Positions 9,842-58,021 of a DNA stretch of 64,000 bases are shown piece by piece (positions within the stretch are counted from its first letter, which is position 1; every line of letters begins with the position of its first letter). The notes beneath the pieces are model-generated. The model was not told the origin of the DNA, did no database searches, and saw only the letters and a list, made by a program, of their open reading frames with translations. Location of the stretch: NCBI GenBank assembly GCA_026395175.1, contig JAPLZF010000010.1, forward strand, positions 4,450 to 68,449, in the 5' to 3' direction. Made by a program: the position numbers and the translations under genes. The DNA is from Candidatus Staskawiczbacteria bacterium (GTDB lineage: Bacteria > Patescibacteriota > Minisyncoccia > Minisyncoccales > Staskawiczbacteraceae).

Positions 9842-9883
9842 AAAAAAAGAGGCGTGGAACAAGTTTTTACACTTGCCACGCCT
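9842..9883 (-). terminator. Rho-independent terminator of cassette A
   Basis: rc AGGCGTGGCAAGT-GTAAAA-ACTTGTTCCACGCCT followed by C-TTTTTTT; begins 23 nt after the TGA at 9906-9908. Confidence 0.8.
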
Positions 9884-9905
9884 TTGGCTAATCACCCGAA
9901 AGTGA

Positions 9906-10991
9906 TCAGCCCATACCTCCGTCGCCGTAGTAATACGGCGGGATGCTCGGCTGGTCCTGATCCCAATCGTCAAAGTCGAACCAGACGTCATATACGCACC
10001 CCGCGTCAAACTGCACGCGAAGATCCTGACTCGGGATAACCGTGTAGGATAGCGCTTCGGTCATACCAACTCCGATTTTCCGAATCAAAACATGTTCAGC
10101 GAGCTCGCCTGTCGGAGACACACCGAACAACTTCACTATCCGGCTAGTCTTGAACGAAACCTGGAATACAGGGTTAGCGTAAACTGCCGCCTTGCCCACA
10201 CCCAGATTTATGTCGTTCGGGTCGTCCAAGAATACGGTGTTGTCGAAGGTTGCGTTTCCGCCAACTTCGAACATCTCTGGGTCAACGCTTGCCCCCGTAC
10301 CGATGTCGTAGACTGTGGGAACATTTCCGCCAGTGTAGACAGCCAGTTGCCCTGACCAGCCAGCTCCTTCGAGCCCTGTCAAAGAGGTCGGGAAAAAGAA
10401 TCGGCCATTGTTCCAGGCGTTCAACGGGACCCATTGTGGCTGAGTCTCTCCGGCCGGCTTCACTAGGGCAAACGCCGATGTAACCCCAGGCAAAGAGATT
10501 GGAATCTCGTTTGCCATTTCCATGACTACGCTGTCGGCGCCATTTGGCACTGCCCAACCGCCCGGACCAGGAACCGGGTAAAACTGGTTCTGTCCGAAGA
10601 ACAGTTGAGCGCCATAGCTGTCTGAGAAGTTCATGCCGAACGTCAATTGTAACGACGTGTCCATGGCACCGAACTCAAGTAGGTCTTTCACTACTGACGA
10701 CACAATCTTCCTGACGTCGGGGTCCGATCCAGTCACGCTCGTGTATGTCTTGCCGGTGAGAATTCCCGGGCTGCCTATCCATTTCTGCGCCGAGGCAACC
10801 TGTTCCTTAGCGTAAGAGAACAGAGCCTTGCGTGAGGTGATCATCGGAAGGGCATCTGGTAAGCTTACCGTCGGCATTGAGGCCGAAGCTGAAACCACGG
10901 TCGGTAACGTGTTATCACCACCCGCTGCCATCGCGCTCATTCCCGCCATCAACGTAACCAACAAAACTACCAAAAACGTGTGTGTGTTCAT
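9906..10991 (-). CDS. Secreted protein of unknown function (GC-rich cassette A, 361 aa)
   Basis: Start moved to ATG at 10991 (MNTHTFLVVLLVTLMAGMSAMAAGG, a signal-peptide-like N-terminus) with GGGAGA 8 nt upstream; the track ORF is 52 codons longer. No domain I recognise; ends WFDFDDWDQDQPSIPPYYYGDGGMG. Confidence 0.7.
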   Translation of the reverse strand: MNTHTFLVVLLVTLMAGMSAMAAGGDNTLPTVVSASASMPTVSLPDALPMITSRKALFSYAKEQVASAQKWIGSPGILTGKTYTSVTGSDPDVRKIVSSVVKDLLEFGAMDTSLQLTFGMNFSDSYGAQLFFGQNQFYPVPGPGGWAVPNGADSVVMEMANEIPISLPGVTSAFALVKPAGETQPQWVPLNAWNNGRFFFPTSLTGLEGAGWSGQLAVYTGGNVPTVYDIGTGASVDPEMFEVGGNATFDNTVFLDDPNDINLGVGKAAVYANPVFQVSFKTSRIVKLFGVSPTGELAEHVLIRKIGVGMTEALSYTVIPSQDLRVQFDAGCVYDVWFDFDDWDQDQPSIPPYYYGDGGMG

Positions 10992-11088
10992 GTCGTATTC
11001 TCCCATTTCATTTCTTCCACCCACAGCAGTGCATCCAGAACACCCTTCAGCACTGCTCACTGCAACTTCACATACCATCCCGTTCCAG

Positions 11089-11358
11089 TTATTTGTCGGT
11101 CGCATCTCCTTCCTTTTTTTCATCCGCAAAAATGACATGTCCCCCAATTACGAAAGTTGCGCCTTTCGGCACTTCAACTTTCTGAGGTTCAGTCTTTTCC
11201 GGGACGGTCTCCTTCCGCGGTTCGACAGCCGTTACGACTTTTGCGGGCTGTTGATATCCTTTGGCTGGAACCGCCTTATCGGCAGTCCTATCCAAAAAGA
11301 TGATCAGAGCCAAGAATGCAAACGCCACTGCCAGAAAACCTGCCACTGCTTTTTTCAC
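11089..11358 (-). CDS. Small bitopic membrane protein (GC-rich cassette A, 89 aa)
   Basis: GTG at 11358 preceded by GGAGGGAG (5-nt spacer): VKKAVAGFLAVAFAFLALIIFLD..., then a Pro/Glu/Lys/Thr linker (EPRKETVPEKTEPQK) and a short C-terminal segment ATFVIGGHVIFADEKK. The 97-nt gap to the next gene holds an 8-bp hairpin (AGCAGTGC...GCACTGCT). Confidence 0.55.
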   Translation of the reverse strand: MKKAVAGFLAVAFAFLALIIFLDRTADKAVPAKGYQQPAKVVTAVEPRKETVPEKTEPQKVEVPKGATFVIGGHVIFADEKKEGDATDK

Positions 11359-11472
11359 GTTTCTCCCTCCATTTTTCCGACCAAATTGACAAAGGACTTG
11401 CGGTCCAAACCTTGCACAAGCAGGGTAGGACAAATAAAAACATGGTTTTCACCATATATTTATTATCTCATT

Positions 11473-11501
11473 ATCATATCACAATTTGACTAACGTGTCA
11501 A
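11473..11501 (-). promoter_or_regulatory. Promoter of cassette A
   Basis: rc GAAAGC-TTGACA-17 nt-TATGAT; -35 11496-11501, -10 11473-11478; about 110-nt leader. Confidence 0.6.
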
Positions 11502-11548
11502 GCTTTCACTTATTTAAAAATTTATGTTATTGTTAGATTAAATACAAT

Positions 11549-30709: not shown

Positions 30710-32041
30710 TTATTTATTTTCGTCGGTTGGGTTGTCGGCTGGTTCTGCCTCAACTGCTTCGCCATCTGTTCCAACTTCTTTGGCCTTTTTAGTTTTTCGA
30801 GCCTTCTTGGCTCGCCCTGAGCTTGCCGAAGGGTTGGTTTTCCCCTCGCTATCGCTCGGGGTAAGTGTTCGCTCCGCTCCCTTATCTTCACCTTCGTTTT
30901 CTTCTGTTGGAGTTTCCGATGTTTTAATGTCTATTTTCCAGCCGGTTAATTGAGCAGCCAATCTTACATTTCTGCCGTCTTTTCCAATTGCCAAAGAAAG
31001 CTGGTCTTCTGGTACAAAAACAATTGCTGTGTTTTTGTCTTCAACTTGCACACTGACAACTTTTGCAGGAGACAAAGCATTTGTAATAAATTTTTCCGGT
31101 TTTTCGTCAAAAGAAATCACGTCAATTTTTTCTCCGCCCAATTCATTTATAACCGCCATAATTCTTGTTCCACGCTGTCCAACGCAAGCTCCAATTGGGT
31201 CAACGCCTTGTTCATTTGAAACAACTGCAATTTTTGTTCGAAACCCTGGCTCTCTGGCAATTGCCTTAATTACAACTGTGCCAGAGGCAATTTCAGGAAC
31301 TTCCAACTCAAATAATTTTGAAATTAATTTTGGATATGTCCTTGAAAGCATAACAACACTTCCTTTTGGAGTGTCTTCCACCTTCATTATATAAAGCTTT
31401 AATCTTTGGCTTGGCCTGTAAAATTCTCCCGGAATTTGCTCGTCTCGGTTTAAAATTCCCAAAGTTTTTCCAATGTCCACAAAAACAGTATGGCCTTCAA
31501 TCCTCTGCACAATTCCAGAAACGATTTCTCCTTCGCGAGACCTGTATTCTAAAGAAATTGTTTCTTTTTCTGCTTCTCTAATTTTTTGCAGAATAACCTG
31601 TTTTGCGGTTTGCGCTGCAATTCTGCCATAATCTTGCTTGGAAATTAAAGGAATTTCGATATCTTCGCCGGCTTTAATTTTTGGAAAATCTTTTTTGGCG
31701 TCAGCTAACATAATATGTTTTTCAGGATTAAAAACATATTTCTTTGGAGGTTCTTCTCCTGCTCTGGCTTCATCTTGCGGAATTTCTTTTCTTTCTTTCA
31801 TTTCTTCAATTTCCTCGTCTGTGTAAAGCATGCCATTGTCCACAACCAATTTTATTTGCCAAAACTTAACATCGCCCGAAACCGGGTTGAATTTGGCCTT
31901 AATTTTCTGCCCTTTTTGGCCGTAGTCTTTTTTGTAGGCTGTAGCAATTGCAGCTTCAATTGTTTCAATTACTTTTTCAGGCGAGATGCCTCTTTCTTCT
32001 GCAATTTGGTTTAACGCGCCCTTAAATGATTTTATATCCAT
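30710..32041 (-). CDS. nusA: Transcription termination/antitermination factor NusA with GC-rich C-terminal tail
   Basis: 443 aa; S1 (GEIVSGIVQRIEGHTVFVDIG), KH1 (GACVGQRGTRIMAVINELGGEKIDVI), KH2 (LAIGKDGRNVRLAAQLTGWKIDIK), then a low-complexity tail of about 65 aa. Confidence 0.95.
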   Translation of the reverse strand: MDIKSFKGALNQIAEERGISPEKVIETIEAAIATAYKKDYGQKGQKIKAKFNPVSGDVKFWQIKLVVDNGMLYTDEEIEEMKERKEIPQDEARAGEEPPKKYVFNPEKHIMLADAKKDFPKIKAGEDIEIPLISKQDYGRIAAQTAKQVILQKIREAEKETISLEYRSREGEIVSGIVQRIEGHTVFVDIGKTLGILNRDEQIPGEFYRPSQRLKLYIMKVEDTPKGSVVMLSRTYPKLISKLFELEVPEIASGTVVIKAIAREPGFRTKIAVVSNEQGVDPIGACVGQRGTRIMAVINELGGEKIDVISFDEKPEKFITNALSPAKVVSVQVEDKNTAIVFVPEDQLSLAIGKDGRNVRLAAQLTGWKIDIKTSETPTEENEGEDKGAERTLTPSDSEGKTNPSASSGRAKKARKTKKAKEVGTDGEAVEAEPADNPTDENK

Positions 32042-50483: not shown

Positions 50484-51329
50484 ATGGATTTGACTTCTCC
50501 AAAAATAATAAAAGAACTTCTTTCAAAATATAATGCCAGGCCTTCAAAAGGATTGGGACAGAATTTTTTGATAGACAAGAATGTTTTAAACAAAATTATT
50601 GAAGCTTCAGACATAAAACCAAGCGATGTTATTTTGGAAGTGGGCCCGGGCATTGGAACTTTAACGCAGGAACTGGCAAAAAAGGCCAAAAAAGTTATTG
50701 CAATAGAAAAAGACAAAGTAATGATTGAAATTTTGAAAGAAACCTTGAAAGATTCCAAAAATATTGAAATCATCCAAGGAGATATTTTAAAAAATAAATT
50801 ATCTCTGCCAAAAAAATATAAGATAGTTGCAAATATCCCGTATTATTTGACTTCACCTTTAATCAGAAAATTTCTGGAAAGCGAAAACCAGCCAGAAGAA
50901 ATGGTTTTGATGCTTCAAAAAGAAGTTGCCCAAAGAATTTGTTCAAAGCCTCCGCGAATGAGTTTGCTGGCAGTGTCTGTGCAGTTTTATGCCGATGCAA
51001 AAATTGTTTCTTATGTCTCAAAAAACTGCTTTTGGCCTGCTCCAAAAATTGATTCGGCAATAATAAAAATTCACCCAGTTAAATCGCCCGAAGGGCGAAT
51101 TTTGGCAAAGCCAAAATTATTTAACGGGGTAAACTCCCAACTTTTTTTCAAAGTTGTAAAAGCCGGATTTTCCCAACCCAGAAAACAATTAGCCGGCAAT
51201 TTATCAAAAATGTTAAAGTTAAGCAGAGAAAAAACAAACAGCTGGCTTTTGAAAAACAATATTGCCCCAACCCAGCGGGCTGAAACATTAAGCGTTGAAG
51301 ACTGGAAAAATTTGGCAAATAGTTTATAA
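50484..51329 (+). CDS. rsmA: 16S rRNA (adenine1518/1519-N6)-dimethyltransferase
   Basis: 281 aa; GQNFLID, EVGPGIGTLT, NIPYYLTSP; a TATTAT -10-like hexamer ends 6 nt before the ATG, so the transcript may be leaderless. Confidence 0.93.
   Translation: MDLTSPKIIKELLSKYNARPSKGLGQNFLIDKNVLNKIIEASDIKPSDVILEVGPGIGTLTQELAKKAKKVIAIEKDKVMIEILKETLKDSKNIEIIQGDILKNKLSLPKKYKIVANIPYYLTSPLIRKFLESENQPEEMVLMLQKEVAQRICSKPPRMSLLAVSVQFYADAKIVSYVSKNCFWPAPKIDSAIIKIHPVKSPEGRILAKPKLFNGVNSQLFFKVVKAGFSQPRKQLAGNLSKMLKLSREKTNSWLLKNNIAPTQRAETLSVEDWKNLANSL
51265..51305 (+). repeat. 41-bp direct repeat, copy 1 (functional rsmA 3' end)
   Basis: CCCCAACCCAGCGGGCTGAAACATTAAGCGTTGAAGACTGG; 39/41 identical to 52168-52208. Confidence 0.95.
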
Positions 51330-51336
51330 TTACCTT

Positions 51337-51747
51337 ATGGAGTTAGAAAAACAACAAAAAATAAATTTAAAAGAAATTGCAAAAAGATATCATCTAAAGA
51401 TGGTCTTACTTTTTGGTTCACAAGCAACAGGTAAAACACATAAGGAAAGCGATTTTGACATTGCTTATTTGCCGGAGAAAAATTTAAGTTATGATGATGA
51501 AATTAATATAAATCTTCAATTTGCAAATATTTTCAGAAACGACAGAGTTGATACGGTGGATATAAATAAATCTAATCCATTGTTGCTTTTTCAAGTAAGT
51601 AAAAATTCAATTTTGCTCTATGGAAACAGGCAAGATTTTTTAAAATTCAAATTATACGCATTCAATGCATATAACGACTACGCTCCTTATTTTAAAATGG
51701 AAAATAATTTGAATAAAAAAATAATCAACGCTTATGCCAATCGATAA
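51337..51747 (+). CDS. Nucleotidyltransferase (MNT-type antitoxin)
   Basis: ATG at 51337 (MELEKQQK), 8 nt after the rsmA stop; LFGSQATGKTHKESDFDIAY (GSxxxGx5-6SDxD). Confidence 0.85.
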   Translation: MELEKQQKINLKEIAKRYHLKMVLLFGSQATGKTHKESDFDIAYLPEKNLSYDDEININLQFANIFRNDRVDTVDINKSNPLLLFQVSKNSILLYGNRQDFLKFKLYAFNAYNDYAPYFKMENNLNKKIINAYANR

Positions 51748-52156
51748 AAAAATTATCAGCCGAAAAATAACTTTGATAAATAACGACTTAAAAAGCTTAA
51801 AAGCATTAAGCAAGCTTTCTCTTAAAACTTATTTGAGCAAATCAGAATACGAAGCGCTGGCGGAAAGATATTTAGAAAGGATAATCGGCAGGATGATTGA
51901 TATTAATTATCATATTTTATCGGAAAAAGAAAATGAAATTCCAACAGATTTCTACAATTCTTTTATTGAATTGGGCAGAAAAAAGTATCTGCCATTTAAG
52001 TTGGCGGAAATAATGGCTAACTCCGCCGGACTGCGGAACAGATTAGCGCACGAATATGACGAAATCGACGCTAAAAAAATTTTTGAAGCAATAGCATCTT
52101 GTTTGAAAAACACGCCAAAATATTTAAAAAACATCGTTAAGTCGCTTAATTTATAA
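51734..52156 (+). CDS. HEPN (DUF86) toxin
   Basis: 140 aa; 14-nt overlap with the MNT gene; R-x4-H motif in GLRNRLAHEYDEID. Confidence 0.85.
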   Translation: MPIDKKIISRKITLINNDLKSLKALSKLSLKTYLSKSEYEALAERYLERIIGRMIDINYHILSEKENEIPTDFYNSFIELGRKKYLPFKLAEIMANSAGLRNRLAHEYDEIDAKKIFEAIASCLKNTPKYLKNIVKSLNL

Positions 52157-52167
52157 AAATAACATCT

Positions 52168-52208
52168 CCCCAACCCAGCGTGCCGAAACATTAAGCGTTG
52201 AAGACTGG
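52168..52208 (+). repeat. 41-bp direct repeat, copy 2 (orphan rsmA 3' end remnant)
   Basis: CCCCAACCCAGCGTGCCGAAACATTAAGCGTTGAAGACTGG. In the rsmA frame it continues to SPTQRAETLSVEDWLKLNKNFK-stop; both mismatches are synonymous third positions. Confidence 0.95.
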
Positions 52209-52233
52209 CTGAAATTAAATAAAAATTTCAAAT

Positions 52234-52273
52234 AAAAAGGAGGTCTCCCAACGAACTAGCGTCGGGAAACCTC
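52234..52273 (-). terminator. Terminator of GC-rich cassette B
   Basis: rc GAGGTTTCCCGACG-CTAGTT-CGTTGGGAGACCTC (two G-U pairs) followed by C-TTTTT. Confidence 0.75.
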
Positions 52274-52302
52274 ATAAATCGTGCCTTTCGGCATTCCATG
52301 CC

Positions 52303-52641
52303 TTACCTCCCTGTCGCAATGTGACGAGCCCACTCACGCTTCTTCGCCGGATCAGTCGGTGGGTTGTTCACGGTGTGCGCCCATGCAATACGAGCGTCTA
52401 TGTCGCTCTTGGCGCTTTGGGCAGGTGTCTCTTTCGGGGTTTCCAGCACTTCTTGTTGCTGAGAATCCGCAACAATTACCCCGTTCTGGTGGGTCAACGC
52501 TGGGACCACGAACACCACCAGAATTCCTACTGCAACCACAATCAAAGCTGTGACAGCTATTGCGGTTACCATTTGAATCCCAGTGTAATTCGTGGCGGAC
52601 CTTACTTTGTGTCCTTGGATAAAATCGGCGTGCGTAGTCAT
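52303..52641 (-). CDS. Small bitopic membrane protein (GC-rich cassette B, 112 aa)
   Basis: ATG at 52641 (MTTHADFIQGHKVRSATNYTGIQMVTAIAVTALIVVAVGILVVFVV) with GTGAGG 8 nt upstream; the longer track start lies upstream of the predicted promoter. Linker QQEVLETPKETPAQSAK; 57% GC on line 52381-52440. Confidence 0.6.
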   Translation of the reverse strand: MTTHADFIQGHKVRSATNYTGIQMVTAIAVTALIVVAVGILVVFVVPALTHQNGVIVADSQQQEVLETPKETPAQSAKSDIDARIAWAHTVNNPPTDPAKKREWARHIATGR

Positions 52642-52708
52642 CGTTAGTACCTCACAATCCCTATTCAGTTGACAATGGTCAGATGAAACATCATTGACCT
52701 CTAATTTT

Positions 52709-52737
52709 AGATTAAGCAATATCAAAGAGATTGTCAA
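52709..52737 (-). promoter_or_regulatory. Promoter of cassette B
   Basis: rc AAAAGTC-TTGACA-17 nt-TAATCT; shares the 12-mer AAAGTCTTGACA with the cassette C promoter. Confidence 0.5.
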
Positions 52738-52773
52738 GACTTTTAACCGAGAGGTGTGAATAATTTTTTTCAC

Positions 52774-52798
52774 TTGCTTTCTTTCTTTGTGGTATAAT
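52774..52798 (+). promoter_or_regulatory. Promoter of the first T4SS-like operon (divergent from cassette B)
   Basis: TTGCTT-13 nt-TATAAT with an extended TGTGG-TATAAT; 26 nt before the ATG at 52825. Confidence 0.5.
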
Positions 52799-52824
52799 AG
52801 AATAATTTATATATCAAAAATATA

Positions 52825-53142
52825 ATGCCAGAACAGAAAGAAGAAGAACAAAAAAAAGAAGGGGACGGCAATAGCGGTAATTTAGCTTCTCCTGAAGGAA
52901 TTTTGATGCTTTGTGTAGCTGGGATTATAGACGCTATCAGTTTGATTCCGGTAATTAATATTATTTCAGACATTTTGGGAATTATCATTATTGGAGGATG
53001 GCTATTAATAACCCGCCCTGGCGAGGCTGTTAAAAAAGCTGTTAAAAGATTTCTTATTGCTTGTGGAATAGAATTAATTCCCATTGTGAGCATTGCCCCA
53101 TCTTGGACTTGGTTTGTTTACAAAACATTAAAAGACAATTAA
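52825..53142 (+). CDS. Small membrane protein, first gene of the T4SS-like locus
   Basis: 105 aa; acidic N-terminus then 2-3 hydrophobic helices (GILMLCVAGIIDAISLIPVINIISDILGIIIIGGWLLI). Confidence 0.6.
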   Translation: MPEQKEEEQKKEGDGNSGNLASPEGILMLCVAGIIDAISLIPVINIISDILGIIIIGGWLLITRPGEAVKKAVKRFLIACGIELIPIVSIAPSWTWFVYKTLKDN

Positions 53143-53157
53143 AAAAATATTTTTATT

Positions 53158-55053
53158 ATGAATTTTTTCTTAAAAATTTTGCGACATAAAAAAATAATAT
53201 TTTTTATTGTTTTTTTTATTGTTATTTCGGCAATTATTTTACCTCATCTCGCATCAGCACAAGGAATGTCAGGAGAAATAGATGATATGACCATGAATGC
53301 AGGCGATGTGAATATCGGCGATATTGTTGGACCAGCCGCAAGAGCGATAAGCAATGTTGCTATAGCGCCACTTTTAACCGCCATTGTTTGGGGGATTACA
53401 CTTACTTCAATTTCAGTTTTTGGCACTCTTTCTAATCTTGCTGGTGGATTATTACTTTATATAATATCTTTGAATGCAGACCCAACATGGGCATTCACCA
53501 AGTTCACTAATCCTGTAATAGCTATTGGCTGGACTCAAGTAAGAGATTTAGCTAATATGGTTGTCGTATTAGGTTTTGTCATTATAGGAATAGCGACTGC
53601 TTTAAGGATTAAAACATATCAGGCAAACCAACTTTTAGCCAAACTAATAATTGCAGCTCTTTTAATAAATTTTTCTTTATTAATTTGTGGAATATTTATT
53701 GACGGCTCTAATATATTAACGACTCATTTTCTGCAAAGTGGGGGATTTTTAGAAAAATCTGTATCACAGAGTATAACAGATCAGGTGACTGCTCTTTATA
53801 ACAATACTCACTTATTTGATATATCTGCGATTCCTGATTTAATCGGAGCGGCCATATCAATTATTTTTTTTGACGTTATAACATTGATTACGTTTTTTCT
53901 TTTCTTTTTCCTATTTTTAGCCAGGTATGTATTTTTGTGGATATTGGTTGTTCTTTCACCATTGGCTTTTGTTTGTTATGTATTTCCATTTACAAAAAAG
54001 TTTTTTGATATGTGGTGGAATAATTTTTTCCAATGGTGCATTATTGGAGTAGCTGGTTCCTTTTTTCTTTTTCTTGCGGACAAATTAACTGTAGGAATAA
54101 CCAGCACAACAACAAATGTAGCCGCCCAAACTACAGGCACCAGCATGTTTTCTTATCTTGTGCCTTCTGTATTTTTGCTTGGCGGGCTTTTATTCTCCAT
54201 GCAATCAGGCGCAATTGGAGCCAGTATGGCAGTATCAGCATTCAAAAAAACTGGAAAAGTAGGAGGAGGAATATTACAAAATTCTAGAGTAGGACAAGCA
54301 ACTGGCAACCTTGGAAACAGACTTAAGTCGGGTTCTTTGCAAGCATTGGAATCTATGGGGCTTGCCGCTCGAGGTACAACTTCAAACTCAAATACAGCGG
54401 CAGTAGCAAAACGTCAAAAATATACAGCAAATATGACAGACAATGAGGTGTTGGCAGATATGAGAAAAAGCGGGGTAATTGGAGTCGCCGCATTCAACGA
54501 AGCTCAAAAAAGAAAAATTGTCAATCAATATGCTGGCGGAGATGTAAACCAAATTGCTACACGGGCTGCCCGTGCTAGATCATGGGGAATAAACACTACT
54601 GATGCTGAAAAACAAGTGACTGAGTTATCAGGGCACAATGATAATTCTGTCAGAAATGTTATAAGAGACCAAGTTACTGGCACAGTAAACATAAATCCTA
54701 CTACTGGAGTTGCGTGGACACAACCAGAAGCTCAAAGAGAAGCTGTTAGAAGAAGAAATGCTGGACTATCTGTTCCTAATTTGAGAGATATGCATCATAG
54801 TCAAATAAATGAAAATGTTGCTGAGGATGTAGATAATAGAACATTTGATAGAGCTGCTTTGGAATTTAATAAAGAACAAATGGATAGATACAGAGGACTG
54901 GTTGCTCCAGGCGGCGCTTTAATTACAAGACAAACAGCCCTAAGGGCACAATATGCTGCTGAAAGGGCGGCTGGGCATAATGCTCAAGCCGATCACTTAC
55001 TTGCACAACTAAATAATTTGTCCGCAAACATAGGATCAATTGCAGCTTGGTAA
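53158..55053 (+). CDS. Polytopic membrane protein, VirB6/TrbL-like by architecture and context
   Basis: 631 aa; signal-like N-terminus, at least 6 TM helices over ~330 aa, hydrophilic C-terminal ~230 aa. The assignment is contextual, not motif-proven. Confidence 0.55.
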   Translation: MNFFLKILRHKKIIFFIVFFIVISAIILPHLASAQGMSGEIDDMTMNAGDVNIGDIVGPAARAISNVAIAPLLTAIVWGITLTSISVFGTLSNLAGGLLLYIISLNADPTWAFTKFTNPVIAIGWTQVRDLANMVVVLGFVIIGIATALRIKTYQANQLLAKLIIAALLINFSLLICGIFIDGSNILTTHFLQSGGFLEKSVSQSITDQVTALYNNTHLFDISAIPDLIGAAISIIFFDVITLITFFLFFFLFLARYVFLWILVVLSPLAFVCYVFPFTKKFFDMWWNNFFQWCIIGVAGSFFLFLADKLTVGITSTTTNVAAQTTGTSMFSYLVPSVFLLGGLLFSMQSGAIGASMAVSAFKKTGKVGGGILQNSRVGQATGNLGNRLKSGSLQALESMGLAARGTTSNSNTAAVAKRQKYTANMTDNEVLADMRKSGVIGVAAFNEAQKRKIVNQYAGGDVNQIATRAARARSWGINTTDAEKQVTELSGHNDNSVRNVIRDQVTGTVNINPTTGVAWTQPEAQREAVRRRNAGLSVPNLRDMHHSQINENVAEDVDNRTFDRAALEFNKEQMDRYRGLVAPGGALITRQTALRAQYAAERAAGHNAQADHLLAQLNNLSANIGSIAAW

Positions 55054-55078
55054 AATAACTTAAAAAATATAATATAAT

Positions 55079-55588
55079 ATGGCAATAAATCAAAATCAAA
55101 AAATATGGTTTTCTGGAGAAAAAAGCCCGTATATTATTATCTCAGAAATATTAGAAAAAAATAATTTGAAAGAAACACTAAATGATATGGTTGATAAAAT
55201 AGGGCAAGGACAAGTTTCTAGAATAATAATTTTATACAAGCTATCAAGAGATATTGCAGGAGAAAAAATTTATGAAAAAGATTTTATATTGGCAATTCAA
55301 GATCAATTGAAAACCACCACTAAAATAGCGCAGGACATAAATAAAGACATCAAAGAAAAACTTTTACCGCTGGCTCAAAAAATTAATATTGTCGAGCAAA
55401 AATCAGAAGAAAAAGTAATTACAATGCCTGCACCAATACAAACAGAAAAAATACCGACGAAAGAAACAGGTTATGAAACAAATCAAAAACCAATAAAATT
55501 AACAAAGACTATTACTAAAATTCCTGAAATAAAAGAAGTCAAAAATACTACCAAAAAGTCTGACAGCTATAGAGAAACAATTGAATAA
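55079..55588 (+). CDS. Hypothetical protein of the T4SS-like locus
   Basis: 169-aa ORF with a Lys/Glu/Thr-rich C-terminal half. Confidence 0.55.
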   Translation: MAINQNQKIWFSGEKSPYIIISEILEKNNLKETLNDMVDKIGQGQVSRIIILYKLSRDIAGEKIYEKDFILAIQDQLKTTTKIAQDINKDIKEKLLPLAQKINIVEQKSEEKVITMPAPIQTEKIPTKETGYETNQKPIKLTKTITKIPEIKEVKNTTKKSDSYRETIE

Positions 55589-55602
55589 AATTATAAATAA
55601 AG

Positions 55603-55634
55603 AGGCGGCTCTGACAGAAATGTCGGAGTCGCCT
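55603..55634. terminator. Bidirectional long-stem terminator between 55079 gene and cassette C
   Basis: AGGCGGCTCTGACA-GAAA-TGTCGGAGTCGCCT (two G-U pairs), with T-rich sequence on both sides. Confidence 0.75.
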
Positions 55635-55671
55635 TTGTTTGCTCTTGGGGCGAGCAGCCCATACTACACTA

Positions 55672-56922
55672 TTATCTCCTTCTTGTTTTTCTTTTGTCCT
55701 TTCTTTCCGCCCAAGCCCGTAATTGAGCTGGATTCATCTTGCTGAGGTCCGGATGATCGTCATCCTCATCATCGACGAGTTCATCCGAATCATCGTTAGA
55801 ATTTCTTCCGCCACCGCGAGGGTTGCCTTGACGGCCGGGATTGCCAACACCACGCTGACCGCCACCGGAATCTTTTACGGCGAAGGCCGCAGCGACTCCA
55901 CCGATTAGCTCGGCAATACTCCCTTGGGCGAATGGAGTTCCATCTACCGAACCTATGCGAATGTCGCGCAAATCGCCAGAAGCACCAGCACGGTCGCGTT
56001 TGACCTGATCCCATGCTCTGTCAAAGTCATCCTTGAATCCGCCTTCGGAATTCGGAATACCCCTTAACTTGGGATTTGCATCAAGCTTCTCTTTCAATTC
56101 GTCTTCGGTGATATGAGCGAGCCGAGCGACAGATTTTAGAATTCTGCCAGCCGTCTCTTCCATGTCCTTGTCGGCAGTCTGCTGAGCGCTCCACTTCGCA
56201 AGGGTTGCCTCACGATAGCCCTCAGGTGGGTCAATATTGACCGTCTCCAGGGCAAGCAGTTCAATTCCATACTGATTCTTCAATATAGAAATAATGCTCG
56301 GCTCACCGCCAGGTCCATCATGGGCCAGCATTGCGAAGACATCCCTGTCTAACTGAGTACCGGGATCGTTGATGATTTTGTCGTACTCGTGCTCTGAGAT
56401 GTACTGCCTTACCCTCGGAAGAACACGGGTGACAAGAGCATCAAACCAATCTCTAACTAGAAACAAGGCTTTGTACGGGTTGATGATCATTGCCGTCATC
56501 GTCATTATCCCGTGTAGAGGAAGTTTTTTCATATCCTCTGCGTTAGAAAACTCCAGCCCATACTGATACTGCGTGCCGGCAAGGATGAAATCCGTATTCT
56601 CATCTTGACGGCGCTCAAATTTCCCGTCGGGAAGAGCTTTAGTGTAGCGCATAGTGCGAGAGTAAATCCTATCAATGCCCAGGGGCCTTAACAAGCTAAC
56701 CCAACGCAATCCGCCTAAAAGAGCAGGACTACTTGAGCCTCCCTCGACCACATCTCCATCAGAGCTCAGTCTAAAACCCCTCTTAGCCAATATGGTCTTG
56801 CGATATCCACCGAAGCGGACCACGTTTTTGGCCGTACCTTCTTTTACGAAAGTGAAGCAAAATAACGTGTAGACAACTGCAATCAATAAACCGACAATCA
56901 AAACACCAAGTGCATACAACAT
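55672..56922 (-). CDS. SPFH/band-7-like membrane protein with Gly/Arg-rich and acidic tail (GC-rich cassette C, 416 aa)
   Basis: ATG at 56922 (MLYALGVLIVGLLIAVVYTLFCF) with AAGGAG 8 nt upstream; the track ORF is 79 codons longer and runs through the promoter. VKEGTAKNVVRFGGY...GLRWVSLLRPLGIDRIY...YGIELLALETVNIDPPEGY resembles SPFH. GC is 48-63% on sampled lines. Confidence 0.6.
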   Translation of the reverse strand: MLYALGVLIVGLLIAVVYTLFCFTFVKEGTAKNVVRFGGYRKTILAKRGFRLSSDGDVVEGGSSSPALLGGLRWVSLLRPLGIDRIYSRTMRYTKALPDGKFERRQDENTDFILAGTQYQYGLEFSNAEDMKKLPLHGIMTMTAMIINPYKALFLVRDWFDALVTRVLPRVRQYISEHEYDKIINDPGTQLDRDVFAMLAHDGPGGEPSIISILKNQYGIELLALETVNIDPPEGYREATLAKWSAQQTADKDMEETAGRILKSVARLAHITEDELKEKLDANPKLRGIPNSEGGFKDDFDRAWDQVKRDRAGASGDLRDIRIGSVDGTPFAQGSIAELIGGVAAAFAVKDSGGGQRGVGNPGRQGNPRGGGRNSNDDSDELVDDEDDDHPDLSKMNPAQLRAWAERKDKRKTRRR

Positions 56923-57010
56923 AGTCTTTCTCCTTTTCCATATGACCCCGCTAAGCGGGGGATTCAAAGTTCTGTTTTTCAGCCAGGAAACATATCCAAG
57001 CCTATATTTA

Positions 57011-57061
57011 ATTATAGCATAATACAGGTTTCCTGTCAAGACTTTCGGCTCCTGTGGATAT
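57011..57061 (-). promoter_or_regulatory. Promoter of cassette C with ATATCCACAG box
   Basis: rc ATATCCACAG-GAGCCGAAAGTC-TTGACA-17 nt-TATAAT; -35 57034-57039, -10 57011-57016, box 57052-57061; the ~85-nt leader contains the hairpin CCCCGC-TTA-GCGGGG. Confidence 0.65.
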
Positions 57062-57071
57062 TTATATTGGG

Positions 57072-57523: not shown

Positions 57524-57576
57524 CTTACAATTTTAAATTACAAATTTTAAATTTTAAATCAAATTTAAATGATTAA

Positions 57577-57960
57577 ATGAATGAAAATAAAACAAACCAA
57601 AAATATGATTTGGAAGAGAGAACAGCAAAATTTGGAGAAGATATGGTTGATTTTGTAAAAACAATTGAAAAGAGCGAAATTAACCGGCCACTTATAAATC
57701 AAATTATAAGGTCTGCCACTAGTATCGGAGCGAATTATATGGAAGCTAATGGAGCAGGATCGAAGAAAGATTTCCGAAACAAAATATGTATTTGTAAAAA
57801 AGAGGCGCGAGAAACAAAATATTGGTTAAGAATAATTTCTAAAGCTAATTCAGAAAAATTAGACAATTGCAGATTGTTATGGCAAGAGGCTCACGAATTG
57901 ACACTTATCTTTTCTAAAATAATAATTTCATCGACAAATCAAAACCCTGAGAAAATTTAA
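57577..57960 (+). CDS. Four-helix-bundle protein (23S rRNA intervening-sequence protein family)
   Basis: 127 aa; YDLEERTAKFGEDMVDF...IIRSATSIGANYMEANGAGSKKDF..K..IC.KEARETKYWLRII is the family signature. Confidence 0.85.
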   Translation: MNENKTNQKYDLEERTAKFGEDMVDFVKTIEKSEINRPLINQIIRSATSIGANYMEANGAGSKKDFRNKICICKKEARETKYWLRIISKANSEKLDNCRLLWQEAHELTLIFSKIIISSTNQNPEKI

Positions 57961-58021
57961 ACATTTTAGAATTGTCATAATTGAATTAAAATTTATAATT
58001 TAAAATTTAAAATTAGCATAT

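Follow-up and report, generated by a model that had tools for sequence, protein, structure and literature searches.

What is a short GC-rich block with a single small gene doing between ksgA and a type IV secretion system (T4SS)-like operon, from which it points away, in DNA that is otherwise AT rich? This block, which we call unit B, lies on the minus strand at about positions 52230-52750 of a 64-kb stretch (below, the window) of contig JAPLZF010000010.1 from Candidatus Staskawiczbacteria, an ultra-small bacterium that belongs to the candidate phyla radiation (CPR)/Patescibacteria. An original prediction, made from the sequence alone, had grouped it with two other GC-rich cassettes, A and C, and proposed that the three are related acquisitions or else a co-regulated set of envelope proteins functionally attached to the secretion and surface machinery. 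Our analysis makes it reasonably probable that B is a genuine, strain-specific, independently transcribed gene, situated where gene content is flexible, between ksgA and the T4SS-like locus. B may be transcribed together with A and C and may belong to a wider class of surface protein genes.

Anatomy and product of unit B

Unit B is a complete transcription unit, and all the parts ascribed to it beforehand, namely, a promoter of its own (TTGACA-17-TAATCT), a leader of about 65 nt, a GTGAGG ribosome-binding site, a 112-aa product, and a terminator with a 14-bp stem, can be read in the sequence. The sigma-70-type promoter (52709..52743, on the minus strand like every element of the unit) has a perfect TTGACA -35 hexamer (52737-52732), which together with the preceding AAAGTC completes the 12-mer AAAGTCTTGACA (52743-52732) and is separated by a 17-nt spacer from the -10 hexamer TAATCT (52714-52709). 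The 5' leader (52642..52708) contains the ribosome-binding site (52655-52650) 8 nt before the ATG at 52641, with which the open reading frame (ORF; 52303..52641, 112 aa plus stop) begins. The intrinsic terminator (52230..52273), whose hairpin lies 30 nt past the stop codon and was confirmed by a consensus scan, consists of the 14-bp stem with a 6-nt loop (52273-52240) and the T-run CTTTTTATTT (52239-52230). The NCBI annotation, hypothetical protein NTY81_01620, is a 156-aa model with a GTG start at 52773, which is less plausible than the ATG at 52641 because it lies upstream of the unit's own promoter. The window has one other TTGACA-17-TAATCT combination; it lies upstream of a gene (30710-32041) whose N-terminal sequence leads us to regard it as nusA. 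As had been noted earlier, about 36 bp separate the B promoter from the oppositely oriented promoter of the T4SS-like operon that starts with p105. The evidence supports B as a real monocistronic unit, complete in itself, that diverges from the T4SS-like operon and codes for a bitopic envelope protein.

Coding periodicity is found in the frame of this ORF (G1 0.39, R1 0.71) and in none of the other five frames; the corresponding values are 0.39/0.67 for unit C and 0.33/0.66 for the VirB6-like gene of the adjacent operon. The product, which includes the peptide IAWAHTVNNPPTDPAK, is predicted to comprise a cytoplasmic segment (residues 1-23), a transmembrane (TM) helix (about 24-48), an acidic Pro/Glu/Thr/Gln linker (49-73), and a basic two-helix C-terminal hairpin (74-110). 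Its hydrophobic core (residues 28-46) reaches a 19-residue Kyte-Doolittle maximum of 3.25. Because the N terminus is weakly basic and the stretch past the TM helix is acidic, we predict that the protein is bitopic with an N-in/C-out orientation. A single-sequence AF2 model (pLDDT 73) has helices at residues 4-60, 74-92, and 98-110, with a disordered linker at residues 61-73. The autonomous unit would thus give rise to a leftward transcript and a bitopic protein that keeps its short, weakly basic N terminus inside the cell and exposes a flexible acidic linker and a basic hairpin of about 37 aa on the outside.

Profile and structure searches, which had been proposed as a check on the product, returned either the protein itself or nothing. 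A word-indexed search of 5.8e9 protein clusters and an exhaustive phmmer search of 1.84e9 representatives each recovered B only. There was no match in phage and plasmid records (tblastn, E <= 10), no relative in IMG/VR, and no copy in 52 related loci (tblastn), so that the gene is absent beside the T4SS-like loci of relatives. The best hits in Pfam-A (E = 0.14, 12 bits versus a cutoff of 26), PHROGs (E = 0.066, no family), and NCBIfam (14.7 bits versus a cutoff of 575) assign it to no family; PADLOC gave no match, and the best Foldseek hit of the model in the PDB (E = 5) is meaningless. As judged by these sequence searches, B is a strain-specific orphan without a detectable homologue in any database searched. 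The similarity of DPAKKREWA in B to NPAQLRAWA in C led us to consider B an internally deleted or truncated version of the SPFH gene that makes up unit C. This was rejected: the best BLASTP match between the two covers 9 residues (E = 0.18), and phmmer of B against 59 proteins encoded in the SPFH slot reached E = 0.17 at best.

Misassembly, which had been named as an outcome that would undermine the three cassettes, is excluded for B. The gene is carried by 18 contigs, and the six that we retrieved, one from SRR20698651 and five from ERR153021xx runs, match the window over 5-10 kb with 100% identity and cross both junctions of B and of C. Since contigs from different runs agree across both junctions, B is not an assembly artifact.

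Composition and promoters of units A, B, and C

The description of B as a GC-rich cassette in AT-rich flanks is borne out, with the refinement that the GC-rich part consists of the ORF (52.8% GC) and the terminator (59%) only. The leader (37%) and the promoter (27%) are host-like, the flanks have 26-35% GC, and the richest 300-nt window (52300-52599) reaches 54.3%. The GC contents of the ORF at the three codon positions are 0.59, 0.44, and 0.55; the last value (GC3) compares with a mean of 0.336 +/- 0.079 over 70 ORFs of the window, and among credible genes of the window the only GC3 outliers are A (0.61), B (0.55), and C (0.49). Per codon, the log-likelihood ratio of codon usage (host versus A or C models) is about 0 to +0.07 for B, compared with -0.21 for host genes under the C model. 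The correlations of relative synonymous codon usage among A, B, and C are weak (0.08-0.18), so a comparison that had been suggested as a way of linking the cassettes does not support their kinship, and we rejected a common donor on this ground. Codon bias linked to expression is also an unlikely cause of the high GC3 values because an 89-aa gene that we take to encode ribosomal protein S15 and another that we presume to encode trigger factor both have a GC3 of 0.28.

Unit C (55601..57045, minus strand) contains an SPFH/Band 7-like gene coding for 416 aa (55672-56922). It is preceded by a TTGACA-17-TATAAT promoter with a TG (57039-57011) and followed by a hairpin terminator (55601-55636) that it shares with p169. 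The product shows a weak match to Band_7/SPFH in Pfam and has 44 homologues. In every relative that covers the region (13/13), p169 and PrgI are separated by an antisense gene whose product of 356-436 aa has an N-terminal TM segment; examples of genes in this slot are found in related loci L008 (10628-11788), L011 (1587-2828), L015 (7830-8963), and L009 (10001-12748), among others, with the Band_7 similarity confirmed directly for the L008 and L015 proteins. BLAST fails to link several of the protein types in the slot to one another, and the degree of identity does not follow that of the flanking genes: in L030 the SPFH protein is 71% identical but the VirB6-like protein only 38%, whereas in L015 the VirB6-like protein (54%) and PrgI (81%) are accompanied by a protein with no detectable similarity to C. 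Within the locus, no other gene stands out consistently by its GC3 in relatives, and the GC content of the slot gene tracks the local GC content (r = 0.81, n = 13) with a mean excess of +0.095. Its promoter, TTGACA-17-TGnTATAAT about 55 nt from the PrgI -10 element, is likewise conserved across relatives. Because the same slot holds a gene in all of these relatives and this gene is GC enriched nearly everywhere, C is a resident core gene whose compositional bias persists; a viral origin was rejected, as IMG/VR holds no relative of it.

Unit A (9866..11506, minus strand), which adjoins a tRNA-Arg gene, is bicistronic: an 89-aa TM protein (GTG at 11358 to 11089) is followed by a 361-aa secreted protein (10991-9906) and a terminator, all downstream of a AAAGCTTGACA-17-TATGAT promoter (11506-11473). 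It has only two homologues, one of which, in the close relative L058 (1-1198), is syntenic. There the neighboring p139 protein is 92% identical, while the A protein is about 61% identical and its gene equally GC rich (0.54). A further GC-rich gene of L058, PG_binding_1 (GC 0.55), is missing from the window. The rapid divergence and the phylogenetic incongruence seen in these comparisons suggest frequent allele replacement or recombination at GC-rich genes.

No protein similarity connects A, B, and C in BLASTP or phmmer searches. The resemblance that had been pointed out between the linkers of B and the 89-aa A protein is not significant, in that BLASTP aligned the TM segments only (E = 0.69), and a relationship between these two proteins was rejected. 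With C resident in 13 of 13 relatives, A syntenic in L058, and neither sequence nor codon usage indicating kinship, the half of the original prediction that viewed the three as related acquisitions finds no support. By the same token, a high GC content is no proof of recent import in this lineage, since C and A are GC-rich residents.

What the three units do have in common is found upstream of their genes. The 12-mer AAAGTCTTGACA is, as predicted, identical in the promoters of B (52732-52743) and C (57034-57045), and unit A has the variant AAAGCTTGACA at 11496-11506. Taken alone, the 12-mer is a weak indicator, as 11 of 100 shuffles gave at least two matches when one mismatch was allowed. The pattern AAAG(N0-1)CTTGACA, in contrast, occurs three times in the window against an expectation of 0.15, in each case on the minus strand at the -35 element of A, B, or C, and none of 100 shuffles reached three; CTTGACA occurs four times. 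Furthermore, the back-to-back promoter region of B and p105 can be aligned over about 75 nt with that of C and PrgI, 4.3 kb away. The alignment score of 33 compares with 17.0 +/- 2.8 for dinucleotide shuffles, of which 1 in 1,000 reached it, and none of 400 other AT-rich genomic windows did so. The SPFH promoters of relatives have other bases upstream of the -35 element (e.g., AACATCTTGACA), which makes the AAAGTC extension a feature peculiar to this genome and hints at a B promoter that was modelled on the resident C promoter or converted from it. A specific sigma factor or activator may recognize AAAG(N0-1)CTTGACA.

The shared extended -35 element and the aligned bidirectional promoter regions make co-regulation of A, B, and C plausible. 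To this extent, the notion of a co-regulated envelope set stands; its attachment to the secretion machinery, in turn, is indicated by position and promoter similarity only. B would then be transcribed together with A and C as part of a small set of envelope proteins and be co-expressed with the SPFH protein and the A products, divergently from both T4SS-like operons. GC richness would mark a class of resident surface protein genes that diverge rapidly or are replaced, rather than a one-off import.

The ksgA slot, the T4SS-like operons, and the origin of unit B

To place B in its genomic context, we used loci of relatives that were fetched via the VirB6/TrbL-like protein, the SPFH protein, and an alignment of p105 homologues. 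These fall into two arrangements. In the first, to which the window belongs, ksgA is followed by p105, the VirB6-like gene, p169, the antisense SPFH gene, PrgI, a TrsD/TraC-like gene, and VirB4; in the second, the order is p169, SPFH (antisense), PrgI, TrsD-like, VirB4, p105, and VirB6-like. The slot between ksgA and p105 is nearly empty in L039 and L041 (130-229 bp). In other relatives it holds a Y1-transposase-like (Y1_Tnp) gene (L008/L036 and L030), a DUF6922-AbiEii pair with a ksgA fragment, MNT-HEPN, and ORF6N (L007/L015), ORF6N (L011), IVP four-helix-bundle genes (L014, L018, and L033), or other membrane or secreted ORFs (L018, L024, and L049). In the window, it is occupied by an MNT/HepT toxin-antitoxin (TA) pair (51295-52156) and then by B. 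As the slot contents vary in this way among relatives, B is a 515-bp occupant of a gene flux hotspot.

The 3' end of ksgA is present on either side of the MNT/HepT pair, as an 84-nt imperfect direct repeat (51247-51330 and 52150-52233, 76% identical). The insertion of the pair gave ksgA a new C terminus and displaced the old one, which ends in DWLKLNKNFK. The displaced original 3' end (52150..52235, plus strand, terminating in PTQRAETLSVEDWLKLNKNFK and a stop codon) forms the right border of the MNT/HepT insertion and the left border of B, which adjoins the displaced stop codon (52235). A similar displaced tail, ending in DWIKLLDNFK, follows the Y1-transposase-like gene in L030, and the ksgA fragment of L007/L015 (110 aa) lies between two TA-type pairs. 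These duplicated or displaced tails make the ksgA 3' end look like a hotspot at which site-specific insertion recurs. There is no evident recombinase near it, and around B itself we found no bracketing repeats, no template/variable repeats of the diversity-generating retroelement (DGR) type, no integrase, and no prophage context. In the metagenomic relatives L020 (1-131) and L021 (1-119), a reverse-complemented -35 element (TGTCAAG) is present upstream of p105 at a place equivalent to that of the B promoter; a full TTGACA-16-TATACT can be read in L020, and both contigs end there.

The right border of B is formed by the native promoter and leader of the p105 operon (52755..52824, plus strand), with TGTGAATAAT at 52755-52764 and an extended -10 element, TGGTATAAT, at 52790-52798. 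The operon (52825..55588, plus strand) codes for p105 (52825-53142), a VirB6/TrbL-like protein of 631 aa (53158-55053), and p169 (55079-55588), in a gene order that is syntenic in relatives. The VirB6-like protein matches TrbL in Pfam (E = 2e-4) and, for the same product, TrbL_3 among precomputed assignments. With 31-54% identity among relatives, versus mostly 65-82% for PrgI, it is the most divergent component of the locus. Across relatives, both T4SS-like operon promoters have a conserved motif of the form TGTGGATAAC, TGTGAATAAT, or TGTTAATAAC about 25-30 nt upstream of their extended -10 elements (52755-52764 and 57053-57062 in the window); it can be recognized upstream of p105 and PrgI in many of them, namely, in L007, L023, L024, L025, L035, L039, L043, and L047. 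This motif could serve in place of a -35 element or as an operator. Between PrgI and the TrsD/TraC-like gene, the window further has a gene of the four-helix-bundle "23S rRNA intervening sequence protein" (IVP) family (57577-57960), flanked by a 38-nt AT-rich inverted repeat (57536-57573 and 57977-58014), at a place where L008 has the TraC-like gene directly after PrgI. In L011, L014, L018, and L033, members of this family turn up in other slots of the locus, much as small mobile cassettes would.

An alternative to a gene of this genome's own flexible repertoire is that B is a recent, moron-like horizontal import from a GC-richer donor, be it a phage, plasmid, or host bacterium, and is unrelated to the secretion genes (e.g., a superinfection exclusion protein). 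The strongly atypical composition of the ORF and terminator fits such an origin, as do a codon usage that suits the host no better than the A and C models, the absence of the gene from every relative, its position in an insertion hotspot beside a TA module whose insertion duplicated the 3' end of ksgA, and a self-contained anatomy of the kind that reportedly defines morons in the sense of Hendrix and Juhala. However, phage, plasmid, IMG/VR, and global protein collections yielded neither donor nor relative, flanking repeats, integrase, and prophage context are all missing around B, and GC richness is no sign of recency in C and A. The promoter and leader have the composition of the host and carry a genome-specific motif in common with A and C, so the promoter, at least, is not foreign. 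We regard import as doubtful.

That B is instead a chance open frame on GC-rich junk or decaying DNA, with a fortuitous promoter and terminator, appears quite improbable. GC-rich DNA is poor in stop codons, and plus strand frames of 90 and 108 aa also run across B; the lack of any homologue would be expected of such a frame, and so would a -10 hexamer, TAATCT, that matches TATAAT at 3/6 positions with TAnnnT retained, for which reason the promoter is not listed by a consensus promoter scan. All available copies of B are moreover identical, which makes a selection test impossible and leaves no sign of purifying selection. Against this stand a periodicity that is restricted to the B frame and equals that of bona fide genes, the 19-residue hydrophobic core with its positive-inside asymmetry, the correct spacing of the ribosome-binding site, the terminator just past the stop codon, and a perfect -35 element embedded in a motif common to two other units. 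The same coding signals count against a structured noncoding RNA in which the ORF would be incidental, a possibility worth raising as GC-rich islands in AT-rich genomes are often RNA genes. The transcript (52236-52708) does fold better than shuffles (z = -4.45; ORF alone, z = -2.72), and the TM-coding part of the mRNA (about 52505-52596, minus strand) is predicted to form a hairpin of about 93 nt that is rich in G-U pairs and goes undetected as a DNA inverted repeat. However, most of the excess folding energy is supplied by the terminator, and Rfam has no family at gathering score (best relaxed match, E = 0.77). We rejected this explanation, which is highly improbable.

We thus return to B as a genuine, strain-specific gene of the ksgA-T4SS slot. 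Besides the weak -10 element and the identity of all copies, several points weigh against this reading or its extensions. No sampled relative has a comparable small antisense gene between ksgA and p105, and a general role of B in the T4SS is unlikely for that reason. The AAAG(N0-1)CTTGACA class was defined after the three sites had been seen, and the gene may have arisen by import, de novo, or by divergence beyond recognition. With respect to function, our best guess is a surface accessory or exclusion-like factor. The more specific proposal, in which the T4SS-like apparatus is the target of the exposed hairpin at the cell surface, for instance, with B as an exclusion- or immunity-like factor for the variable VirB6-like protein, is unlikely and, where exclusion is concerned, is drawn purely by analogy. 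In Patescibacteria, T4SS loci are for the most part devoid of a relaxase and probably nonconjugative (PMC12102498), and hence classical entry exclusion may lack a counterpart here.

Significance and relationship to known systems

On its own, B is of modest interest, being one more strain-specific orphan membrane protein in bacteria that are rich in such proteins. Its surroundings are more instructive. A GC-rich island is an unreliable sign of recent horizontal transfer in this CPR lineage, the T4SS-like locus includes an antisense SPFH gene that is conserved and odd in composition, and small cassettes have inserted repeatedly at the 3' end of ksgA. The conserved GC-rich SPFH gene and the shared promoter signature are more promising leads than B itself. 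If A, B, and C are indeed co-regulated surface proteins, they are candidates for strain-specific recognition of hosts or siblings in uncultured epibionts. The most far-reaching version of this idea, to which we assign a distinctly low likelihood, is that they form an undescribed co-regulated set of fast-evolving CPR envelope proteins with AAAG(N)CTTGACA promoters, whose GC richness would be kept up against the AT bias of the genome, for example, by frequent allele replacement, biased gene conversion, or selection; the SPFH protein would be an unreported core partner of the T4SS, and B would be a strain-specific specificity, exclusion, or immunity factor matched to the hypervariable VirB6-like protein.

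Among known systems, B is reminiscent of phage-type morons and of ORFan accessory genes in flexible slots, in that a promoter-ORF-terminator unit with a composition unlike its flanks is present in one strain and absent in relatives, whose slot contents vary. It differs from morons in lying outside any prophage or recognizable mobile element, with no donor found, and in having a host-like promoter with a genome-specific motif shared with two resident units. When composition is considered over the whole unit, the contrast is between an ORF and terminator with 53-59% GC and a promoter and leader with host-like values of 27-37%.

A second parallel is offered by the entry exclusion proteins of conjugative elements. 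In ICEBs1, the VirB6 homologue ConG is the target of YddJ, an exclusion protein that is small and anchored in the membrane (bioRxiv 10.1101/2021.01.25.428195). Like proteins of this type, B is small and orphan-like in sequence, has a predicted membrane anchor and exposed domain, and is encoded beside a highly variable VirB6-like gene. Unlike the case of the YddJ-type proteins, however, relatives have no counterpart of B in the slot, and it shows no sequence or fold similarity to T4SS entry exclusion proteins (YddJ/TraS/Eex/TrbK) in Pfam, NCBIfam, or Foldseek (best E = 5).

A further match in the literature concerns the locus rather than B, which is not among the components described for it. 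The antisense SPFH gene of unit C also goes unmentioned there, with 0 occurrences of SPFH, Band 7, or stomatin in that report (PMC12102498). The patescibacterial MPF_FATA-like T4SS locus comprises VirB3/PrgI, TrsD, VirB4, VirB6, and a LysM/M23 VirB1-like protein, and cultivated Saccharibacteria require the T4SS-like locus for epibiotic growth (PMC12102498). The window has the same ensemble, namely, PrgI, the TraC/TrsD-like protein, VirB4, the TrbL/VirB6-like protein, and a LysM-M23 peptidase beside ksgA.

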